From the NCBI GenBank assembly GCA_949292905.1, contig CASFAV010000006.1, positions 67,456-131,455 of the forward strand: a stretch of DNA of 64,000 bases. The letters run 5' to 3'. Positions 170 through 64,000 of the stretch are shown in pieces (within the stretch, counting starts at the first letter, position 1; every line of letters begins with the position of its first letter). The DNA is from an uncultured Eubacteriales bacterium (GTDB lineage Bacteria > Bacillota > Clostridia > Christensenellales > DTU072). Both the position numbers and the translations under genes were made by a program. Under the pieces are notes generated by a model. That model saw only the letters and a list, made by a program, of their open reading frames with translations, was not told where the DNA came from and ran no database searches.

Positions 170-1330
170 TTACTCCGCCGCGGACGCGTTTACCGAACGT
201 GGGAAAGCGACTTTTTCTGTCTCCGCGCTTTCATCGCTCGATATGACGTACGTCGTGAAGGAGCCGTCCGTTTTAAGATCGATCACTCTCGCGTGCATGG
301 GCGTAGAAGCATCCTCGTAGGACTGCGCCTGACATGCGGGCGTTACCGCGAGCAGCATCTCTTTTCCGTCGCGTTCGTAGACGAGAGTGGCGCTGTTGTA
401 GTGGTTGTGTCCGAAGAAGACGCCCGTTACGTCGCCGCGCGTGAAGCAGGCTTCGAATATCGGCGAACGCGTATCGGCGGGGGATATCCCCGTGTAGAGA
501 CCGGCGAGCGCGCCGCCCGCTTCGTAAGCTTCCTGCACCTCTATGAAAGGAATGTGTGTGAACAGCAGCGAGGGGACGAGCCTGCCGGTTTCGCTTTCGA
601 GCCGCACGGATTCGTCAAGGTACCATTCCGTCTGCTCTTCGGTTATGCTGAGATACGGGTGACCGGACGAACGGTACGAACCGGAGTCGAGAACGTAGAC
701 GTTGTAGGCGACGGCGCCGTCCGCCGTATGGATCGGTATCGAGTAATTTCCCACGAAATCGTCCTTGGCACTTTCGTCCGCTTCGAAAACGGCGGCTTTG
801 AAGTTTTCTCCGTCCTCGAAACCGCCCACGAAATATTCGTATTCGGTGAGCACCTTCAAGAAATCCGCTTTCGAGCGTGCGGATTCGGAGTCGTGATTGC
901 CGAAAGTGCAGGTCCAGTATTGTTCGCGCGTTTCGAAAAGTTCGGCTATCGCGCGATACGTTTTGATGCTCACGCCGTCGTCGCTCAAGTCGCTCAACCA
1001 GTTGAGGCTGAAGATGTTATCGCCGCCGAGCACCACGAGATCGGGCGAATATTCGTTGAGCGCGGAATTCACGTAATCCGTAAGAAGGGGTTTCAGGTTT
1101 TCCTGATGCTCGATATTCATGAAGCCTTCCTTTTCTATTCCCATCCATTCGTGGAAATCGCACAAGTGAAGTATGCGGAAACCGCCTTCCGCGTCGAAAG
1201 AGAGGGCGGGCGTGCCTACTGAGTAGGGAAGGGGCGTCTCGTCGCGGGACGTCTTTGCGAAAGCGAAAGCCAGGACCGCCAAAGTGACAACTGTCAGCAA
1301 TACCGCCGTTAAGGTCCTTAATTTTTTCAT
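170..1330 (-). CDS. secreted metallophosphoesterase (calcineurin-like)
   Basis: 386-aa ORF with an N-terminal signal peptide (MKKLRTLTAVLLTVVTLAVLAFAFA). Metallophosphoesterase motifs are present: LCDFH, GGDNIF, GNHD, GHNH. The start lies 1 nt after the gdh stop. Confidence 0.85.
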   Translation of the reverse strand: MKKLRTLTAVLLTVVTLAVLAFAFAKTSRDETPLPYSVGTPALSFDAEGGFRILHLCDFHEWMGIEKEGFMNIEHQENLKPLLTDYVNSALNEYSPDLVVLGGDNIFSLNWLSDLSDDGVSIKTYRAIAELFETREQYWTCTFGNHDSESARSKADFLKVLTEYEYFVGGFEDGENFKAAVFEADESAKDDFVGNYSIPIHTADGAVAYNVYVLDSGSYRSSGHPYLSITEEQTEWYLDESVRLESETGRLVPSLLFTHIPFIEVQEAYEAGGALAGLYTGISPADTRSPIFEACFTRGDVTGVFFGHNHYNSATLVYERDGKEMLLAVTPACQAQSYEDASTPMHARVIDLKTDGSFTTYVISSDESAETEKVAFPRSVNASAAE

Positions 1331-1331
1331 T

Positions 1332-2594
1332 TTAGAAAAATCCTCTCGCTTTGCGCGCTTTTACCAGTCTTGCGAGCGCCACGATATACGCCGCGCTGCG
1401 CAGATCGGAGGAATACTTTTCCGCAGCGTGCACCACGTCGGCGAAAGCGCGTACCATTATGTCGCGCATTTTACCGTTGACTTCCTCTTTGCTCCAGTAG
1501 TAATTCATATTGTTCTGTACCCATTCGAAATAGGATACGACCACGCCCCCGGCGTTCACGAGAATGTCGGGGAAGACTTTTATGCCGCGTTCGACGAGTA
1601 TCGCGTCGGCTTCGACGGTAGTGGGACCGTTGGCGGCTTCGACGACGAAGCGCGCTTTGACGTCGCGGGCGTTCGCCGCGGTTATCTGATTCTCGAGAGC
1701 GGCGGGGATCAGTACGTCGCATTCGGAAGTAAGCAGTTCGTCGTTGCCAATGTGTTTCACGCCTTCGCGCGAATAATCCTTGAGAAGCCCGCCTCCGTTC
1801 ACGAAGGAAAGTATCTCTTTTACGTCCAGTCCTTTTTCGCGGTAAACGCCGCCCGACACGTCGCTCATCGCGGAAACGGTCGAACCGAGCTCCGCGGCGA
1901 TGAGCGCGGCGCTCACACCGCCCACGTTGCCGGTCCCCTGTATAGCCACGACGGCTTCTTTCGGCTTGATACCGTAACGCTTGAATATCTCGCCCACGAT
2001 AGTGCGCACTCCTCTTCCGGTGGCTTCCTTTCTTCCGAGCGAGCCGCCCAGAATAACGTCTTTACCGGTCACGAAGGCGGGTACGAAATTCCCTCCCGAC
2101 AGCACGGAGCAGGTATCCGTAAACCAGTTCATGATCTGCGCGTTGGTGCCTACGTCGGGAGCGGGGATGTCGCGCTGAGGACCTATTACGGGAAATATCG
2201 CCGCTGTATAAGCGCGCGTCAGTCTTTCGAGTTCCGCTTCGCTCAGTCCGGAGGGATCGACCGCCACTCCGCCTTTGCCGCCACCGTAAGGGATGTTGAC
2301 TACGGCGCATTTGAAGGTCATCCAACCGGAGAGCGCTTTGACTTCGTCGATATTAACGCCCGGATGATAGCGTATGCCGCCTTTGCACGGTCCGCAAAGG
2401 GAGCTGTGCTGAACGCGGTAACCGTCGTAATAATCGACGGTGCCGTCGTCGCGGCGCAGAGACAACGCCACCTTGAGCTCGCGTTCGGGGTGCTTCAGGA
2501 ATTCATAGTCTTCTTTAGCCAGCCCGCACGTCGCCGCTGCCCGGTCTATAGTGAGACACAGTTCGTTGAAAGGATTATATTTTTCGTCGCGCAT
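1332..2594 (-). CDS. gdhA: NAD(P)-specific glutamate dehydrogenase
   Basis: Glu/Leu/Phe/Val dehydrogenase signature KGGIRYHP...VVNIPYGGGKGG plus a GTGNVG Rossmann motif. I chose the ATG at 2594 (MRDEKYNPF), which has GAGGAGG 5 nt upstream, rather than the longer ORF start at 2651. Confidence 0.95.
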   Translation of the reverse strand: MRDEKYNPFNELCLTIDRAAATCGLAKEDYEFLKHPERELKVALSLRRDDGTVDYYDGYRVQHSSLCGPCKGGIRYHPGVNIDEVKALSGWMTFKCAVVNIPYGGGKGGVAVDPSGLSEAELERLTRAYTAAIFPVIGPQRDIPAPDVGTNAQIMNWFTDTCSVLSGGNFVPAFVTGKDVILGGSLGRKEATGRGVRTIVGEIFKRYGIKPKEAVVAIQGTGNVGGVSAALIAAELGSTVSAMSDVSGGVYREKGLDVKEILSFVNGGGLLKDYSREGVKHIGNDELLTSECDVLIPAALENQITAANARDVKARFVVEAANGPTTVEADAILVERGIKVFPDILVNAGGVVVSYFEWVQNNMNYYWSKEEVNGKMRDIMVRAFADVVHAAEKYSSDLRSAAYIVALARLVKARKARGFF

Positions 2595-11796: not shown

Positions 11797-11825
11797 GAAG
11801 AGTAAATGCTTTTTGCATTATAAAG

Positions 11826-11878
11826 GCGCAAACGGGAGCACTGCCCCCGCTTGCGGTCACAAAGTAAAAACAGCTCCG
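11826..11878 (-). repeat. second, decayed copy of the tRNA-Leu-proximal terminator/linker segment
   Basis: GCGCAAACGGGAGCACTGCCCCCGCTTGCGGTCACAAAGTAAAAACAGCTCCG aligns with 12083-12134 (GCGCAAACAGGTACACTGCCCCGATCTTCGGTGCCAATTAAAAACAGCTCCG). The period is about 257 nt. Confidence 0.7.
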
Positions 11879-11921
11879 AGAAGACGGGATAGAAATGCGT
11901 CGTGTATGTAAAATAAATCGG

Positions 11922-11947
11922 TTTGCCGAAGGCGGGGGCACTCGAAG
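11922..11947 (-). repeat. orphan, degenerate copy of the tRNA-Leu T-arm/acceptor 3' end
   Basis: The minus strand reads CTTCGAGTGCCCCCGCCTTCGGCAAA. The genuine tRNA 3' end reads GTTCAAGTCCCGCCTTCGGCACCA. Confidence 0.65.
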
Positions 11948-11959
11948 TTACGGAGAGGA

Positions 11960-12062
11960 GAGAAGGGGCGTGACAGGGCGCCTCGTAGCGCAGAGGTAAT
12001 ACGGAGCTTTACGTTGCCCTCGTCAGTTTTGCCGCAGGGCGGCAAAATAGTGCACCCTTTTT
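11960..12062 (-). repeat. tRNA-Leu-linked structured element (relative of the tRNA-Pro-linked cores)
   Basis: The minus strand reads AAAGGGTGCA, then hairpin TTTTGCCGC-CCT-GCGGCAAAA (12027-12047), then CTGACGAG (12019-12026), then ...GTAAAG. The TGACGAGGGC segment can pair with GCCCTGTCA further 3'. Confidence 0.55.
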
Positions 12063-12121
12063 GCTTGTACACTCAGTGTACGGCGCAAACAGGTACACTG
12101 CCCCGATCTTCGGTGCCAATT

Positions 12122-12153
12122 AAAAACAGCTCCGCGAACACGGAGCTGTTTTT
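12122..12153. terminator. bidirectional stem-loop terminator 3' of tRNA-Leu
   Basis: AAAAACAGCTCCG-CGAACA-CGGAGCTGTTTTT, with A/T runs on both sides. Confidence 0.8.
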
Positions 12154-12156
12154 AAT

Positions 12157-12243
12157 TGGTGCCGAAGGCGGGACTTGAACCCGCACGAGGTCATCCCTCA
12201 GCGGATTTTGAGTCCGCCGCGTCTGCCATTCCACCACTTCGGC
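12157..12243 (-). tRNA. tRNA-Leu (anticodon CAA), CCA encoded
   Basis: Hand-folded cloverleaf. Acceptor GCCGAAG/CTTCGGC, anticodon arm GCGGA-CTCAAAA-TCCGC, long variable arm, T-arm GCGGG-TTCAAGT-CCCGC, then ACCA. 87 nt in total. Confidence 0.93.
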
Positions 12244-12390: not shown

Positions 12391-13356
12391 ATGTTGTGTG
12401 CGGCGCTGGCGCCTTGGGCGATCTCGGTAATTTGCGTTGCTGCCGTCGTGGCGGTCGCGGGGCTCTACGCTCTCGGTTGCTACATCGGCTTCTACTTGAT
12501 AATAGTGAGACCGCCTCTCGTAAGCGCGGACAAGCCCAACCCATTGATGGGCGACGATTTCGTCGGCTTCGTCAAGAAAACGCGGGAAGACGCCGTTATA
12601 ATGCAAAAGCTCGAACGCGAACCAGTGGAAGTCGTTACGCGCGACGGACTTACCTTGCGCGGCGAATTCTATCGCGCGGCGGAGCCGAGCGATATAACGA
12701 TAGTGTGCTTACACGGCTATAACAGCAACGCTTACGGCGATTATTCGACGCGCGGATTGAGTTATCTCCATAGCGGATACAACGTACTGCTTGCCAATCA
12801 CAGGCACCACGGTAAGAGCGACGGAAAATATATCGGTTTCGGCGTGCTGGACCGTCACGACGTGCTTAAGTGGGTGGAAGCCGCGGCTAAACTCGTGCCC
12901 GGCGGTAAGATCTTCATATCCGGGGTATCCATGGGCGGAGCCACGGCAATGCAATGCTCCTGCCTCGCGCTGACGCCGGACGTCAAAGGCATAATCGAGG
13001 ATTGCGGATACACCACGGTCAGAGCCGAAGTAGAGTATCTTGCAAAAAAAATGTTCGGATTCGTTCCCAAGCTGACGATAAAATTTATCGAATTTTACAT
13101 GCGCAAAATAGCGGGCTACGGTATGAGCGAAGCGGACTCGCGCGAAGCGGTCAAGCATTCAAAGGTGCCGATACTGTTCATACACGGAACGGAAGACGAA
13201 TTTGTGCCGACGTTCATGGGCAACGAGTGTTACGAAGCCTGCACGGCGCCCAAAGAACTCGTACTTATCGAAGGCGCGGGACACGCTCAATCGTATTACA
13301 GAGACGCTGCGAAATGCGCCGAAGCCGTGAACGCATTCATATCTCGATACAAATAA
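12391..13356 (+). CDS. membrane-anchored alpha/beta hydrolase
   Basis: 321 aa with an N-terminal TM helix, the GVSMGG nucleophile elbow and a C-terminal ...GAGHAQ segment. GGAGGTGG Shine-Dalgarno site. Confidence 0.85.
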   Translation: MLCAALAPWAISVICVAAVVAVAGLYALGCYIGFYLIIVRPPLVSADKPNPLMGDDFVGFVKKTREDAVIMQKLEREPVEVVTRDGLTLRGEFYRAAEPSDITIVCLHGYNSNAYGDYSTRGLSYLHSGYNVLLANHRHHGKSDGKYIGFGVLDRHDVLKWVEAAAKLVPGGKIFISGVSMGGATAMQCSCLALTPDVKGIIEDCGYTTVRAEVEYLAKKMFGFVPKLTIKFIEFYMRKIAGYGMSEADSREAVKHSKVPILFIHGTEDEFVPTFMGNECYEACTAPKELVLIEGAGHAQSYYRDAAKCAEAVNAFISRYK

Positions 13357-13411: not shown

Positions 13412-13488
13412 CGAGGTGTAGCGCAGTTTGGTAGCGCGCTTGGTTCGGGACCAAGAGGTCGTGGGTTCGAATCCCGTCACCTCGACCA
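13412..13488 (+). tRNA. tRNA-Pro (anticodon CGG), CCA encoded
   Basis: Acceptor CGAGGTG/CACCTCG, D-arm GCGC-AGTTTGGTA-GCGC, anticodon arm CTTGG-TTCGGGA-CCAAG, T-loop TTCGAAT. The T-stem GTGGG/CCCGT has two G-U pairs. Confidence 0.9.
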
Positions 13489-13525
13489 CGCAAAAGGCAG
13501 CCGTCACGGTTGCCTTTTTGCGTGG
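13489..13525 (+). terminator. intrinsic terminator after tRNA-Pro
   Basis: GCAAAAGGCA-GCCGTCACGGT-TGCCTTTTTGC. Confidence 0.75.
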
Positions 13526-13564
13526 TCGGGGACGCGATAGCATACCCGTGCGCTTCAGCGCAAA

Positions 13565-13724
13565 GGGTGCGCAAGTTTGCGCAGGTAAGGCGCAAACCTG
13601 ACGAGCGTGAAAGTTGTACCTGTCCGTCAGGCGGGTGCAATCTTATACACCCTGCGTAAAAAATAACGGCTATAAATCAAATGCCGATATAACTAACGTA
13701 TCTGAGTTTCGGCGCATTTTGCGC
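13565..13724 (+). repeat. tRNA-Pro-linked 160-nt core, copy 1
   Basis: Aligns without gaps to 13832-13991; I count 8 mismatches. Paper fold: P1 AGGGTG 13564-69 / CACCCT 13648-53; P2 GTTTGCGC 13575-82 / GCGCAAAC 13590-97; P3 CCTGACG 13597-603 / CGTCAGG 13625-31. Confidence 0.9.
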
Positions 13725-13734
13725 CCGAGTGATG

Positions 13735-13750
13735 CCGTCACCTCGACCAC
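13735..13750 (+). repeat. orphan copy of the tRNA-Pro 3' end (CCGTCACCTCGACCAC)
   Basis: 16/16 identical to 13474-13489, which lies inside the intact tRNA-Pro gene. Confidence 0.85.
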
Positions 13751-13786
13751 AAAAAAAGGGCAGCATTTTCGCTGTCCTTTTTTTGT
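13751..13786 (+). terminator. second terminator-like stem-loop, following the orphan tRNA end
   Basis: AAAAAAAGGGCAGC-ATTTTC-GCTGTCCTTTTTTT. It has the same position and shape as 13489-13525 but a different sequence. Confidence 0.65.
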
Positions 13787-13831
13787 GCGTCGGACGAACG
13801 GGATAGCTTAACCCGTTTCGTATACGAAAGA

Positions 13832-13991
13832 GGGTGCGCAAGTTTGCGCAGGTAAGGCGCAAACCTGACGAGCGTGAAAGTTGTACCGGTCCGTCAGGCG
13901 GGCGCAACCTTATGCACCCTTCGTAAAAAATAACAGCTATAAATCAAATACCGATATAACTAACGTATCGGAGTTTCGGCGCATTTTGCGC
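13832..13991 (+). repeat. tRNA-Pro-linked 160-nt core, copy 2
   Basis: See copy 1. The offset is 267 nt and the first 56 nt are identical. Confidence 0.9.
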
Positions 13992-14024
13992 TCCTTCTTC
14001 ATTTTCGGAATTCGGCTATTACGC

Positions 14025-14077: not shown

Positions 14078-14587
14078 TTGCAAAAACGGGAAGAACCGCA
14101 TCCCTTCGGTTATATATTCGGTACCGATTCATATGCCGGCGGAACGGAAGTCGAGCAGTATTATTACGGTAGCAGTACTTCATACACGACGTCGACCACA
14201 TATTATATACCCGCGAGCCTACGAAGCGTCACTGTAACGGGCGGGAATATCCTGTACGGAGCGTTCCGTAATTGCTCGATGCTTACCTCGGTGACTATAG
14301 GGAACTCGGTCACAAGCATAGGAAGATATGCCTTCCGGAATTGCACGGGACTTACCTCGGTGGCGATAGGGCACTCGGTCACGAGCATAGGAAGTTATGC
14401 CTTTTGGGGGTGCACGGTTACTTCAGCCATATTCGAGGATACCGAGGGCTGGCAGGTGTCGTTGTTTAGCTCTTTCAGTAATTATACTTCGCTCGCGAGC
14501 ACCGATCTTGCGGACGCTTCCACTGCGGCTGAATATCTCATCAGGTCGACATACCACAGTTATTACTGGCGTAAGGTAGCGGCATAA
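14078..14587 (+). pseudogene. BspA-type leucine-rich-repeat protein, apparent C-terminal remnant
   Basis: Repeats of the form IPASLRSVTV..AFRNCSMLTSVTIGNSVTSIGRYAFRNCTGLTSVAIGHSVTSIGSYAFWGC. The ORF opens on TTG with no Shine-Dalgarno site, no signal peptide and no ATG for about 65 codons. Proteins of this family are normally large and secreted. Confidence 0.55.
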
Positions 14588-32391: not shown

Positions 32392-32668
32392 AACAACCAT
32401 AAACCGTTGACGCAGAGTAGTAACTCGAGGGAAGCGCAGAGAGATATCCGGTACGGTGTGACGGAGAAGCGGAATCCGAGCGAATGGACTGCCGAGGGTC
32501 GGTGCGAACGCATCAGTCAGTAGTGCCGGACGGGAACTCCCGTAACAGAGTCAGGATATGACGGTATCCGTGAATTAAGGTCGGACTCGAGGTCCGGCGA
32601 AGTCGGGTGGCAACACGAAACGATATGATTCGTCCCGACGCAGTAACAGTCTGCGTCGGGATTTTATT
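32392..32668 (+). promoter_or_regulatory. T-box riboswitch, Trp specifier (UGG)
   Basis: Stem I elements AGTAGTA, AGAGA and GGTGTGA. Specifier GAA-TGG-A (TGG at 32485-32487). T-box sequence AAGTCGGGTGGCAACACG (32600-32617). Terminator TCCCGACGCAG / CTGCGTCGGGA plus a T-run (32633-32668). Confidence 0.85.
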
Positions 32669-32707: not shown

Positions 32708-34087
32708 ATGACCAAAACGACGGACATTCCCTACAAGATCTATTTAACCGAAGACGAAATGCCGCGTAGCTGGTACAACGTCCGTGCCGATATGCCGGAA
32801 AAGCACGATCCGATGCTCAATCCCGCGACGCTCGAACCCGCGACGAGAGAGGAACTCGAGAAGGTATTTTGTTCCGCGGTGGTGGAGCAGGAGCTCAACC
32901 AGACGGACAGATACATAGAGATCCCCGATGGCATAAGGAATTTCTACAAGATGTACAGACCTTCGCCCCTGGTAAGAGCGTATTGCCTTGAGAAAGCGCT
33001 CGGCACCCCCGCGGAGATATACTACAAATTCGAGGGCAACAACACTTCGGGGTCGCATAAGCTCAATTCGGCGGCGGCGCAGGCATATTACGCCAAGCAG
33101 GAGGGACTCACCTCGCTCACTACCGAAACGGGAGCGGGACAATGGGGTACCGCGTTGTCGATGGCGTGCGCCTTCTTCGGACTCGACCTGACCGTATTCA
33201 TGGTAAAGGTCAGCAGCGAGCAGAAGCCGCACCGCAGAGAGGTCATGCGCACCTACGGCGCCAAGGTCATACCTTCGCCTTCGGACACCACGGAATGCGG
33301 CAGGGCGATACTCAAAGCACATCCCGGAACGGGCGGCTCGCTCGGATGCGCCATTTCCGAAGCCGTAGAAGTGGCGGTATCCACTCCCGGCTGTCGTTAC
33401 GGTCTGGGCTCCGTACTCGATCACGTTCTCCTGCATCAGTCTATAATAGGCTGCGAGAGCAAGATAGCCCTCGACAAGTACGGCGTACACCCCGATATGA
33501 TCATCGGTTGCGCGGGCGGCGGCTCCAACCTCGGCGGACTTATCAGTCCGTTTATGGGGGAGAAACTGCGCGGCGAACGCGATTACCGTTTCATCGCCGT
33601 CGAGCCCGTTTCCTGCCCTTCGCTCACGAGAGGCAAATACCTTTACGACTTCGGCGATACAGGCAAGATAACTCCTCTCATGAAAATGTATACCCTGGGT
33701 TGCGACTTCATACCCTCCGCCAATCACGCGGGCGGGCTACGTTACCACGGAATGAGCGCGGTGATAAGCAAACTTTATCACGACGGATTTATAGAAGCGA
33801 GAAGCGTGGAACAGACCTCCGTTTTCAAAGCCGCGGAAGCTTTCGCGCGTACCGAAGGCATACTGCCCGCCCCCGAATCCTCTCACGCCATACGCGTGGC
33901 GATAGACGAGGCGTTGAAGTGTAAGGAGACCGGCGAAAAGAAGGTGATACTTTTCGGACTTACCGGAACGGGGTATTTCGATATGACGGCGTATAAGAAA
34001 TTCAACGACGGCGAGATGAGCGACTATGTCCCCACCGACGAGGAGATAGAGAAGAGCGTCGCGCAACTCGAGCCTTACAACAAATAA
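32708..34087 (+). CDS. trpB: TrpB-like PLP enzyme, TrpB2 (long) subfamily tryptophan synthase beta chain
   Basis: 459 aa. The N-terminal extension (...EMPRSWYNVRADMPEKHDP) is typical of TrpB2. Motifs HKLNSA (PLP lysine) and GCAGGGSN. Confidence 0.88.
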   Translation: MTKTTDIPYKIYLTEDEMPRSWYNVRADMPEKHDPMLNPATLEPATREELEKVFCSAVVEQELNQTDRYIEIPDGIRNFYKMYRPSPLVRAYCLEKALGTPAEIYYKFEGNNTSGSHKLNSAAAQAYYAKQEGLTSLTTETGAGQWGTALSMACAFFGLDLTVFMVKVSSEQKPHRREVMRTYGAKVIPSPSDTTECGRAILKAHPGTGGSLGCAISEAVEVAVSTPGCRYGLGSVLDHVLLHQSIIGCESKIALDKYGVHPDMIIGCAGGGSNLGGLISPFMGEKLRGERDYRFIAVEPVSCPSLTRGKYLYDFGDTGKITPLMKMYTLGCDFIPSANHAGGLRYHGMSAVISKLYHDGFIEARSVEQTSVFKAAEAFARTEGILPAPESSHAIRVAIDEALKCKETGEKKVILFGLTGTGYFDMTAYKKFNDGEMSDYVPTDEEIEKSVAQLEPYNK

Positions 34088-62101: not shown

Positions 62102-62177
62102 GGGGGTATAGCTCAGTTGGTAGAGCACCTGCTTTGCAAGCAGGGGGTCTGCGGTTCGAATCCGCATATCTCCACCA
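62102..62177 (+). tRNA. tRNA-Ala (anticodon TGC), CCA encoded
   Basis: GGGGGTATAGCTCAGTTGGTAGAGC..CTTTGCAAG.. with the G3:U70 identity pair. Confidence 0.93.
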
Positions 62178-62186
62178 ATCGGATAT

Positions 62187-62263
62187 AGGCTGGTAGCTCA
62201 GCAGGTTAGAGCACGCGCCTGATAAGCGCGAGGTCGGTGGTTCGAGTCCACTTCAGCCTACCA
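62187..62263 (+). tRNA. tRNA-Ile (anticodon GAT), CCA encoded
   Basis: AGGCTGGTAGCTCAGCAGGTTAGAGC..CCTGATAAG..GGTTCGAGTCC. Confidence 0.92.
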
Positions 62264-62456
62264 GAACCGCGTAAGCGGCGAACTCCTGCACCTTGACAAC
62301 TGCATAAAGAGTAGACATAAAATGATCTTAAAATATCTAGAAATAACGTTTCAGAGTAATACGAATTGAACGTAGAAACTAGCTGGAATAAATTGCGAAG
62401 ATATTTTGCTGAGGATTAAACCGAGATAATGTTTCTTTAATAGAGAATCAAGACGA

Positions 62457-64000
<1,544 letters not shown>

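Follow-up and report, generated by a model that had tools for sequence, protein, structure and literature searches.

Integrative elements that target tRNA genes, together with their non-autonomous derivatives of the cis-mobilizable element (CIME) type, have been reviewed (PMC5704250). We describe here a family of short repeated units that lie behind tRNA genes, starting from a 64,000-nt stretch of DNA from an uncultured Eubacteriales bacterium (GenBank assembly GCA_949292905.1, contig CASFAV010000006.1, positions 67,456 to 131,455), referred to as the window, in which one array follows tRNA-Leu(CAA) and a sister array follows tRNA-Pro(CGG). Like the tRNA-targeting integrative elements, the units are located at the tRNA 3′ end, keep the tRNA intact through a 3′-end copy of their own, are followed by a direct repeat, accrete in tandem and are missing from the corresponding sites of relatives. 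Unlike those elements, they are only 210–270 nt long and gene-less with no integrase nearby, contain an inverted copy of the tRNA end (X′) and a covarying core, and use one backbone behind several tRNAs. Repeats of the tRNA 3′ end were found on both sides of the units (except that the Pro arrays lack the terminal one), as were filled and empty sites; an integrase gene within or next to the units was not found in Pfam scans of the neighbouring genes, which covered the window and the loci L001, L003, L009, L010, L012, L013, L014, L025 and L035. Judged by analogy, the units appear to function most like tRNA-targeting integrative elements, although they lack the integrase and the size of such elements.

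Folded single-strand sites are known from integron attC cassette arrays and from the attP site of the CTX phage. With attC arrays the units share a short length, long imperfect hairpins in which structure is kept and sequence varies, a tandem arrangement and degenerate distal members. They lack R″/R′ (GTTRRRY) boxes, an integron integrase and a dif site, and their hairpin arms, unlike those of attC and attP, are copies of the 3′ end of the neighbouring tRNA. Retroviral primer-binding sites are complementary to the last 18 nt of a tRNA. Units resemble the primer-binding sites of long terminal repeat (LTR) elements, including terminal-repeat retrotransposons in miniature (TRIM) and small LTR retrotransposons (SMART), in carrying an 18-nt complement of a tRNA end including CCA (18/18 in L001, where it forms part of a 33-bp stem, 17/18 in L025 and perfect in L014), in being small and non-coding, and in having a purine-rich stretch, GAGCGAGUGA, just before the downstream repeat. 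They differ in their bacterial hosts, in the lack of usual LTRs and of a reverse transcriptase in the loci examined, and in adjoining the gene of the very tRNA that they complement.

A defined unit with ends matched to its tRNA

tRNA genes in the window were called with ARAGORN and the Rfam tRNA model. The intact tRNA-Leu(CAA) gene (12157–12243, minus strand; 55.8 bits with the Rfam model) is followed, on the same strand, by a full unit (about 257 nt) and a truncated one. The last 18 nt of the gene (X, tRNA positions 59–76, GTCCCGCCTTCGGCACCA; 12157–12174) form the outer left arm of a long hairpin, with 15 of the 18 bases paired with X′ in the predicted fold. The inner part of this hairpin is an intrinsic terminator (12119–12156, from inverted repeat and fold) consisting of an A-run, a 12-bp GC stem, a TGTTCG loop and a T-run, and X′ itself is a decayed reverse complement of X (TGGCACCGAAGATCGGGGC; 12100–12118, supported by duplex energies). 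In all, 27-nt arms (12108–12134 and 12141–12167) are 93% complementary. The sequence-only reading of this locus had proposed a terminator and then a linker behind the tRNA. The terminator is indeed there, its hairpin exceeding the proposed extent because the stem continues into the tRNA 3′ end; there is also a stretch in the position of the linker, but it is not a linker, being the inverted copy of about 18 nt of the tRNA end.

Downstream of X′, helix P1 opens with its 5′ strand (AGTGTACC), and hairpin P1a is nested within it (12059–12099; folds and P1 pair counts). The conserved core (12019–12058; pattern and profile matches, covariation) comes next and contains the P1 3′ strand GGGTGCAC, hairpin P2 (TTTTGCCGC..GCGGCAAAA) and then CTGACGAG. 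The conserved block terminates in GCAAAACTGACGAG (12019–12032, minus strand), and the core is 96–100% conserved between species. The 3′ region of the unit (11948–12018) is variable, apart from a conserved block GCGAGGCGCCC revealed by alignment and per-segment identities. The unit closes with the conserved end CTTCGAGTG, followed by X(end), CCCCCGCCTTCGGCA, a direct copy of the tRNA 3′ end (11924–11947) that includes an exact 13-nt match to the tRNA, CCCGCCTTCGGCA (11924–11936). A spacer (11879–11923), in which the left hairpin arm has been lost, leads from X(end) to the remnant of a second terminator; the same arrangement is found in L002 and L023. The truncated second unit (11825–11878) retains the right terminator arm with its T-run, a second X′ (X′2), the P1 5′ strand and the start of P1a, its last letters being ...GTTTGCGCC with TTTATAATGC beyond the break.

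Similarities were scored by local alignment against 1000 dinucleotide shuffles. The second Leu unit scores 56 against the first (shuffles 14.5 ± 2.3; 0/1000 reach this value), and the copy of the tRNA-Leu 3′ end scores 26 (shuffles 12.9 ± 2.0; 0/1000). The direct repeats, 11825–11887 against 12082–12143, are spaced by 256–257 nt and are 71–90% identical. The tRNA, the structured element, the degenerate T-arm/acceptor copy and the truncated second unit with its period of about 257 nt thus all lie essentially where the sequence-only reading had placed them, and the Leu-side similarities exceed the shuffled controls that it had named as the test. An 18-nt inverted repeat, 94% complementary (11811–11828 and 12591–12608), brackets the entire tRNA-Leu locus; it is probably due to chance, since its arms fall in the terminator of a YjbR gene and in the coding region of a hydrolase.

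Across the family, the order is X (tRNA nt 59–76), terminator hairpin, X′, the P1/P1a/P2 core with CUGACGAG, a variable region, CGAGUG and another X. Units are about 210–270 nt long and encode no protein. In helix P1, GC.CACCC pairs with GGGUGCGC; hairpin P2 consists of AAGUUUGC, a variable part and GCAAAC, and is followed by the invariant CUGACGAG, after which 70–110 variable nucleotides lead to the conserved (G)CGAGUG. X, terminator and X′ fold as a single long hairpin in all of the 12 tRNA-adjacent units folded, and in these the pairing with the tRNA starts at position 59, just past the invariant T-loop UUCGA; five tRNAs have this 58/59 boundary in common.

The structured element anticipated at both tRNAs is borne out by covarying helices. 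P1 and P2 together are 88% paired, with a covariation of 0.293 against 0.132 for shuffled partners (0/500 reach the observed value), falling to 0.09 or less when the partners are slid by 1–3 columns, and compensatory changes occur at four pairs. P1a is represented by seven unrelated hairpin sequences across the family and is absent from Ser-type units, and distal P2 varies in length and sequence. The varied spacing of palindromes whose arms remain complementary points to a folded single strand, of RNA or DNA, and not to a double-stranded protein-binding site. Hairpins with T-runs, as expected for intrinsic terminators, follow both the tRNA and the internal X copies. In internal hairpins, the T-run on the tRNA-sense strand is retained even where the A-run has been lost, which suggests termination on the sense strand. 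Two further pairings were considered. A tRNA-like minihelix, or a stem closed by X′ and X(end), is disfavoured, with X′ decaying (to 44% identity, see below) and X(end) invariant, and also because young X′ copies pair with the CCA as well. A pseudoknot of X(end), or a T-stem-like pairing of it upstream, is not a general feature: by eye, only some of the Pro units show one.

X′ matches its own tRNA. The duplex of the Leu X′ with the cognate tRNA-Leu end has a predicted energy of −21.6 kcal/mol, against −11.7, −13.5, −14.1 and −10.9 kcal/mol with the Pro, Glu, Gly and Ser ends. Cognate X/X′ duplexes range from −19 to −36 kcal/mol in eight of the nine units tested, and non-cognate ones from −7 to −16 kcal/mol; the exception is the Ser unit, with a cognate duplex of just −11.6 kcal/mol. 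By sequence comparison, the X′ of L014 is perfectly complementary to the tRNA-Gly(CCC) end, yet no tRNA adjoins it. X′ and the downstream X copy match the particular tRNA that precedes the unit. Per-segment identities between the window Leu unit and the L006 Leu unit are 96% for the core, 89% for P1/P1a, 92% for AACUUCGAGUG (the CGAGUG segment) and 100% for X(end); they fall to 46% for the terminator hairpin, 44% for X′, 56–58% for the variable regions and 37% for the sequence past X(end). This profile indicates constraint on the core and on the sense copy of the tRNA end, with X′ perfect in some copies and drifting in others.

Distribution, gain and loss among relatives

One exact-pattern scan was made over 185,579 species genomes, and further arrays were reached via neighbouring proteins. 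The scan returned 14 loci, of which ten are genuine, all from uncultured Clostridia, and four are chance matches in other phyla; L004, L005, L008, L011 and L016–L022 were set aside as chance pattern matches in other phyla. Hosts are Candidatus Stercoripulliclostridium pullicola, S. merdigallinarum, metagenome-assembled genomes (MAGs) labelled ‘Catabacter’ and ‘Oscillospiraceae’, and several ‘uncultured Clostridia bacterium’ MAGs. A scan of metagenomes gave chance matches and one duplicate of L007, and nothing else. Among the genomes scanned, the family is therefore confined to a small group of uncultured gut Clostridia. In searches of Rfam 15 with all unit types only the tRNAs matched, other matches to the units being far below the gathering score, and the literature searched held no matching description; candidate RNAs near uvrC in a published survey (PMC8040213) are from Prevotella and unrelated. 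Absent from Rfam and from this literature, the family is previously undescribed.

In six of the ten genuine loci a co-oriented tRNA lies immediately upstream: Leu-CAA, Pro-CGG, Glu-CTC, Gly-CCC or Ser-CGA. Counting the window Leu and Pro arrays with those of other genomes, there are 14 tRNA-adjacent arrays at five tRNA species, so that the common layout claimed for the two stand-alone tRNAs of the window extends well beyond it. The location is strict: all five tagged tRNAs are stand-alone genes, and all have a wobble C. This bias may only reflect the tolerance of stand-alone genes for an insert that bears a terminator. The further claim that the rRNA-linked tRNA-Ala and tRNA-Ile are untagged also held: the core profile gives only three matches in the 64-kb window, none of them near these two genes.

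Orthologous loci were reached through the alpha/beta-hydrolase gene that lies between tRNA-Leu and tRNA-Pro, and reveal an insertion polymorphism. In a close relative, L023 (hydrolase 94% identical to that of the window), tRNA-Pro has one unit, with a right junction as in window unit 2, and tRNA-Leu has two full units and a third that is cut at exactly the truncation point of the window. L002 has one Pro unit, cut inside P2, and two Leu units; L006 has three Pro units in the order [B, A, B] and at least one Leu unit. In L035 (hydrolase 87%) there are two Pro units in the order [A, B], with the right junction of L006, and Leu units beside a damaged tRNA, while in L025 (61%) a diverged Leu unit with an X′ of 17/18 precedes a decayed second unit. 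In L027–L029 (57%), by contrast, tRNA-Leu has an ordinary short terminator and no core match, and the same holds for tRNA-Pro in L027 and L028. The tRNA-Glu(CTC) site is filled in L001 and empty in L038–L040 (UvrC 79–81% identical), which have short terminators and no core match.

The arrays themselves are also dynamic. Because L023 has a longer array with the identical truncation point, the window Leu array is best seen as a deletion derivative that arose by recombination between units. Units truncated within the core occur in several genomes, and decay rises from tRNA-proximal to distal units. One 3′ region is common to the L006-Pro, L009-Gly, L003 and L013 units; the window Pro unit has another, shared with L013 unit 2. 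The 5′ part of window Pro unit 2 (terminator and X′) is unlike that of unit 1 and resembles the L013 units. Backbones are thus independent of targets: units occur behind different tRNAs and exchange segments.

The right flank of the tRNA-Pro array is a variable region, with TIR-domain and acetyltransferase genes in L035 (2141–3226), a flank common to L006, and a gene for a BspA-type leucine-rich repeat (LRR) protein in the window (14078–14587) and L023.

Some local peculiarities were noted at these loci. In two independent assemblies of a relative with a hydrolase 87% identical to that of the window (L035 1–420 and L036 1–570, both minus strand), the adjacent tRNA-Leu(CAA) is damaged, but not in the same manner: in L035 the gene breaks off after nt 25 and runs on into the 3′ region of a unit, and in L036 16 nt of the D-arm are deleted. 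Either a dispensable tRNA has decayed or the assemblies are in error at the repeats. A repeat of another sort, its arms GCGAAG..CGGAACCGTAG.. being inverted, is present downstream of the ‘empty’ tRNA-Pro of L027 (8220–8270 and 8505–8550); it is homologous to L013 2140–2260 after unit 2 (..GCAGGGTGTAA..) and may be a second kind of small tRNA-flank element. In L012 (2420–2782) the left flank and hairpin of a unit recur behind it in inverted orientation, at the edge of the sequence analysed, possibly an assembly artefact arising from the 40-bp perfect hairpin. An orphan array in L013, without an intact tRNA, has an Abi_2 (abortive-infection-like) gene (529–1473, minus strand) immediately upstream.

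Mobile element, host RNA or guide

We favour the interpretation that the units are a non-autonomous element with a structured RNA that homes to tRNA 3′ ends; to call them a mobile RNA gene cassette would be equally apt. To this interpretation we assign a probability of roughly 0.45. In the proposed mechanism, a unit would enter at the T-loop boundary, between tRNA positions 58 and 59, bringing along a terminator and a 3′-end copy of its own and displacing the older 3′ end downstream; the tRNA would stay intact because both are supplied by the unit. The scheme is that of tRNA-targeting integrative elements, reduced to about 250 nt. The enzyme would act in trans and be encoded elsewhere, and the X–terminator–X′ hairpin would represent the attachment site folded as a single strand, or would act as its guide. 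The more specific version, in which a trans-acting recombinase uses a folded attachment site, is possible, but we regard it as doubtful. Arrays would grow and shrink by recombination between units, the window Leu array being such a deletion product, and selection would act to retain the core together with CGAGUG and X(end). The unit would probably be transcribed on the tRNA-sense strand, by read-through.

Several observations weigh against this interpretation. No integrase, reverse transcriptase or transposase adjoins any array examined, and no related autonomous parent was found by pattern scans of viral contigs or by BLAST against phage and plasmid collections. A classical double-strand attachment site has no need of X′, joint retargeting of X and X′ would be awkward for a recombinase of fixed specificity, and the Pro arrays have no terminal X copy. 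The strong conservation of the core and X(end) suggests, from sequence comparison, a function beyond mobility. As regards transcription, no promoter was found inside the units, the folding energies are without strand bias (−789 against −786.5 kcal/mol), and the G-U pairs (16 G-U against 10 A-C cells) do not assign the strand either, so expression of the units, if any, would be by read-through from the tRNA gene.

The alternative that survives best, although we consider it rather unlikely, is that each unit is a host gene for a small RNA (sRNA), bounded by terminators, transcribed by read-through from the tRNA promoter and acting on its partner tRNA. The core and a 3′ tail mimicking the 3′ strand of the acceptor and T-stem would affect processing of the tRNA or serve as decoy or sensor, and arrays would arise by tandem duplication, downstream copies decaying as each terminator lowers expression. 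Such a role is in keeping with the between-species identities of the core, CGAGUG and X(end) (92–100%, with flanks at 37–58%), with the covarying helices, with the sense-strand T-run that outlasts the A-run in internal hairpins, with the proximal-to-distal increase in decay and with the lack of a mobility gene near the arrays examined. It sits uneasily with the empty sites, seen at three tRNAs in related species, and with core-truncated units in several genomes. Nor would duplication alone be sufficient to place the same backbone behind different tRNAs with matched X and X′, or explain the perfect anti-tRNA-Gly X′ of L014 without an adjoining tRNA; the missing promoter and strand bias count against an sRNA gene as well.

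A less probable possibility is homing programmed by RNA, in which the 18-nt X′ would be a guide or primer-binding site for the tRNA 3′ end or its gene. This could proceed by reverse transcription primed by the tRNA or by the terminator hairpin, or by an RNA-guided enzyme anchored on the invariant T-loop (TTCGA), and retargeting would simply require copying a new tRNA end. The span of X′, tRNA nt 59–76 including CCA, fits such a role, as does the service of a single backbone to several tRNAs. X′ is perfect or nearly so in L001, L014 and L025 and decayed elsewhere, the pattern expected of a segment that is templated on insertion and free to drift from then on. The 5′ end of the unit abuts the T-run of the terminator exactly, and at the Pro junction the base at position 61 varies (G, C, U or A) with the other 15 nt invariant. 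The 58/59 boundary at five tRNAs also agrees with this route, but tyrosine integrases crossing over in the T-loop would yield the same boundary; moreover, there is no reverse transcriptase, TnpB, IscB or Cas gene near the copies examined, and no Rfam match to a guide RNA, retron or intron. That the insertion mechanism is of a new type is likewise improbable.

It is very improbable that the units are scars of large integrated elements, that is, attL/attR attachment-site remnants left by deletion of a prophage or island: direct repeats of the tRNA 3′ end and the differing genes downstream of the Pro array (LRR in the window, TIR-domain in L035) would fit, but random deletion would not yield, in several species and at five tRNAs, the same covarying module of about 250 nt; the phage and plasmid collections contain nothing similar, and no second att copy that could delimit a large island lies further off in the window.

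If mobile, as we favour, the units would be the smallest known elements homing to tRNA genes, without a gene of their own. The architecture is unusual: a terminator flanked by the last 18 nt of a tRNA in sense and antisense copy, beside a conserved folded core. It points to a target recognized either through pairing of nucleic acids or through a single strand that folds. Were the target determined by nothing more than what is copied into X and X′, this would be directly relevant to genome engineering. If the units are host sRNAs instead, they would form a new RNA class dedicated to individual rare (C34) tRNAs.

Other known systems were compared. Class C group II introns also insert directly after intrinsic terminators with recognition partly by base pairing; unlike them, the units have no intron domains and no Rfam intron match and are several times smaller. 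Some casposons have been reported to target a tRNA-Pro 3′ end. The units resemble CRISPR and casposon arrays in growing beside a fixed ‘leader’ (here the tRNA), in duplicating a short repeat and in having a degenerate terminal repeat, but there is no cas1 or casposase gene and there are no terminal inverted repeats, and the units are homologous to each other and not captured spacers.

A number of specific identities were rejected. For integron attC, hairpins are present, but their bases are derived from the tRNA and do not, by eye, match RYYYAAC / GTTRRRY, and no integrase was found. For a retron non-coding RNA (msr/msd), which has flanking inverted repeats a1/a2, young copies do show complementarity between X′ and X(end), but of the two only X(end) is conserved, X′ decaying, and no reverse transcriptase is adjacent; the 321-aa open reading frame (ORF) between the two tRNAs, considered as a retron-type reverse transcriptase, encodes the alpha/beta hydrolase. 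For omega/re-RNAs of the IS200/IS605 type, there is no TnpA, TnpB or IscB near the loci and no Rfam match at E ≤ 1–10. The invariant CUGACGAG resembles CUGAUGAG of the hammerhead ribozyme, but the sequence after the motif is unconserved, the stem II/GAAA geometry is missing and there is no Rfam match. Group I and II introns, retrons, T-boxes and omega/HEARO RNAs gave no Rfam match on any unit type.

The tRNA-Pro array and other features of the window

The sister array lies on the plus strand behind tRNA-Pro(CGG) (13412–13488, by ARAGORN and Rfam; X at 13471–13488). Its first unit (13489–13731, delimited by repeats, fold and core pattern) consists of the terminator hairpin (13489–13522), X′ (13523–13538), P1/P1a (13539–13564), the core (13565–13605), a 3′ region and CCGAGTG (13725–13731), and is followed by an internal copy of the tRNA-Pro 3′ end, ATGCCGTCACCTCGACCA (13732–13749), 17/18 identical to the tRNA with a chance expectation of 0.03. 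Unit 2 (13750–13992) has its terminator at 13750–13787, X′ at about 13785–13804 and core at 13832–13872; terminator and X′ differ from those of unit 1. The period is 267 nt, and a 161-nt stretch in the 3′ part is 95% identical between the two units. Unit 2 ends in GCGCATTTTGCGC, directly followed by TCCTTC, without a terminal X. Internal X copies of Pro arrays read AU-N-CCGUCACCUCGACCA, N being G, C, U or A and the remaining positions invariant.

The Leu and Pro elements have in common AAAGGGTGCRC..TTTGC-hairpin-GCAAAMCTGACGAG. Aligned with each other, they score 26 (shuffles 16.8 ± 2.4; 3/1000 reach this value), a modest similarity made convincing by the recovery of the same core behind tRNAs in other genomes.

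After the Pro array, two tandem 69-nt repeats (14261–14398), 84% identical, lie within the LRR_5 (BspA-like) gene. At the far end of the window (62102–64000), tRNA-Ala and tRNA-Ile immediately precede a 23S rRNA gene that appears unlinked from 16S, because the preceding 62 kb contain no 16S gene by Rfam and a protein ORF extends to 60959. An ordinary-looking T-box leader (32398–32640; Rfam, 94.4 bits) lies upstream of a 459-aa ORF (32708–34087).

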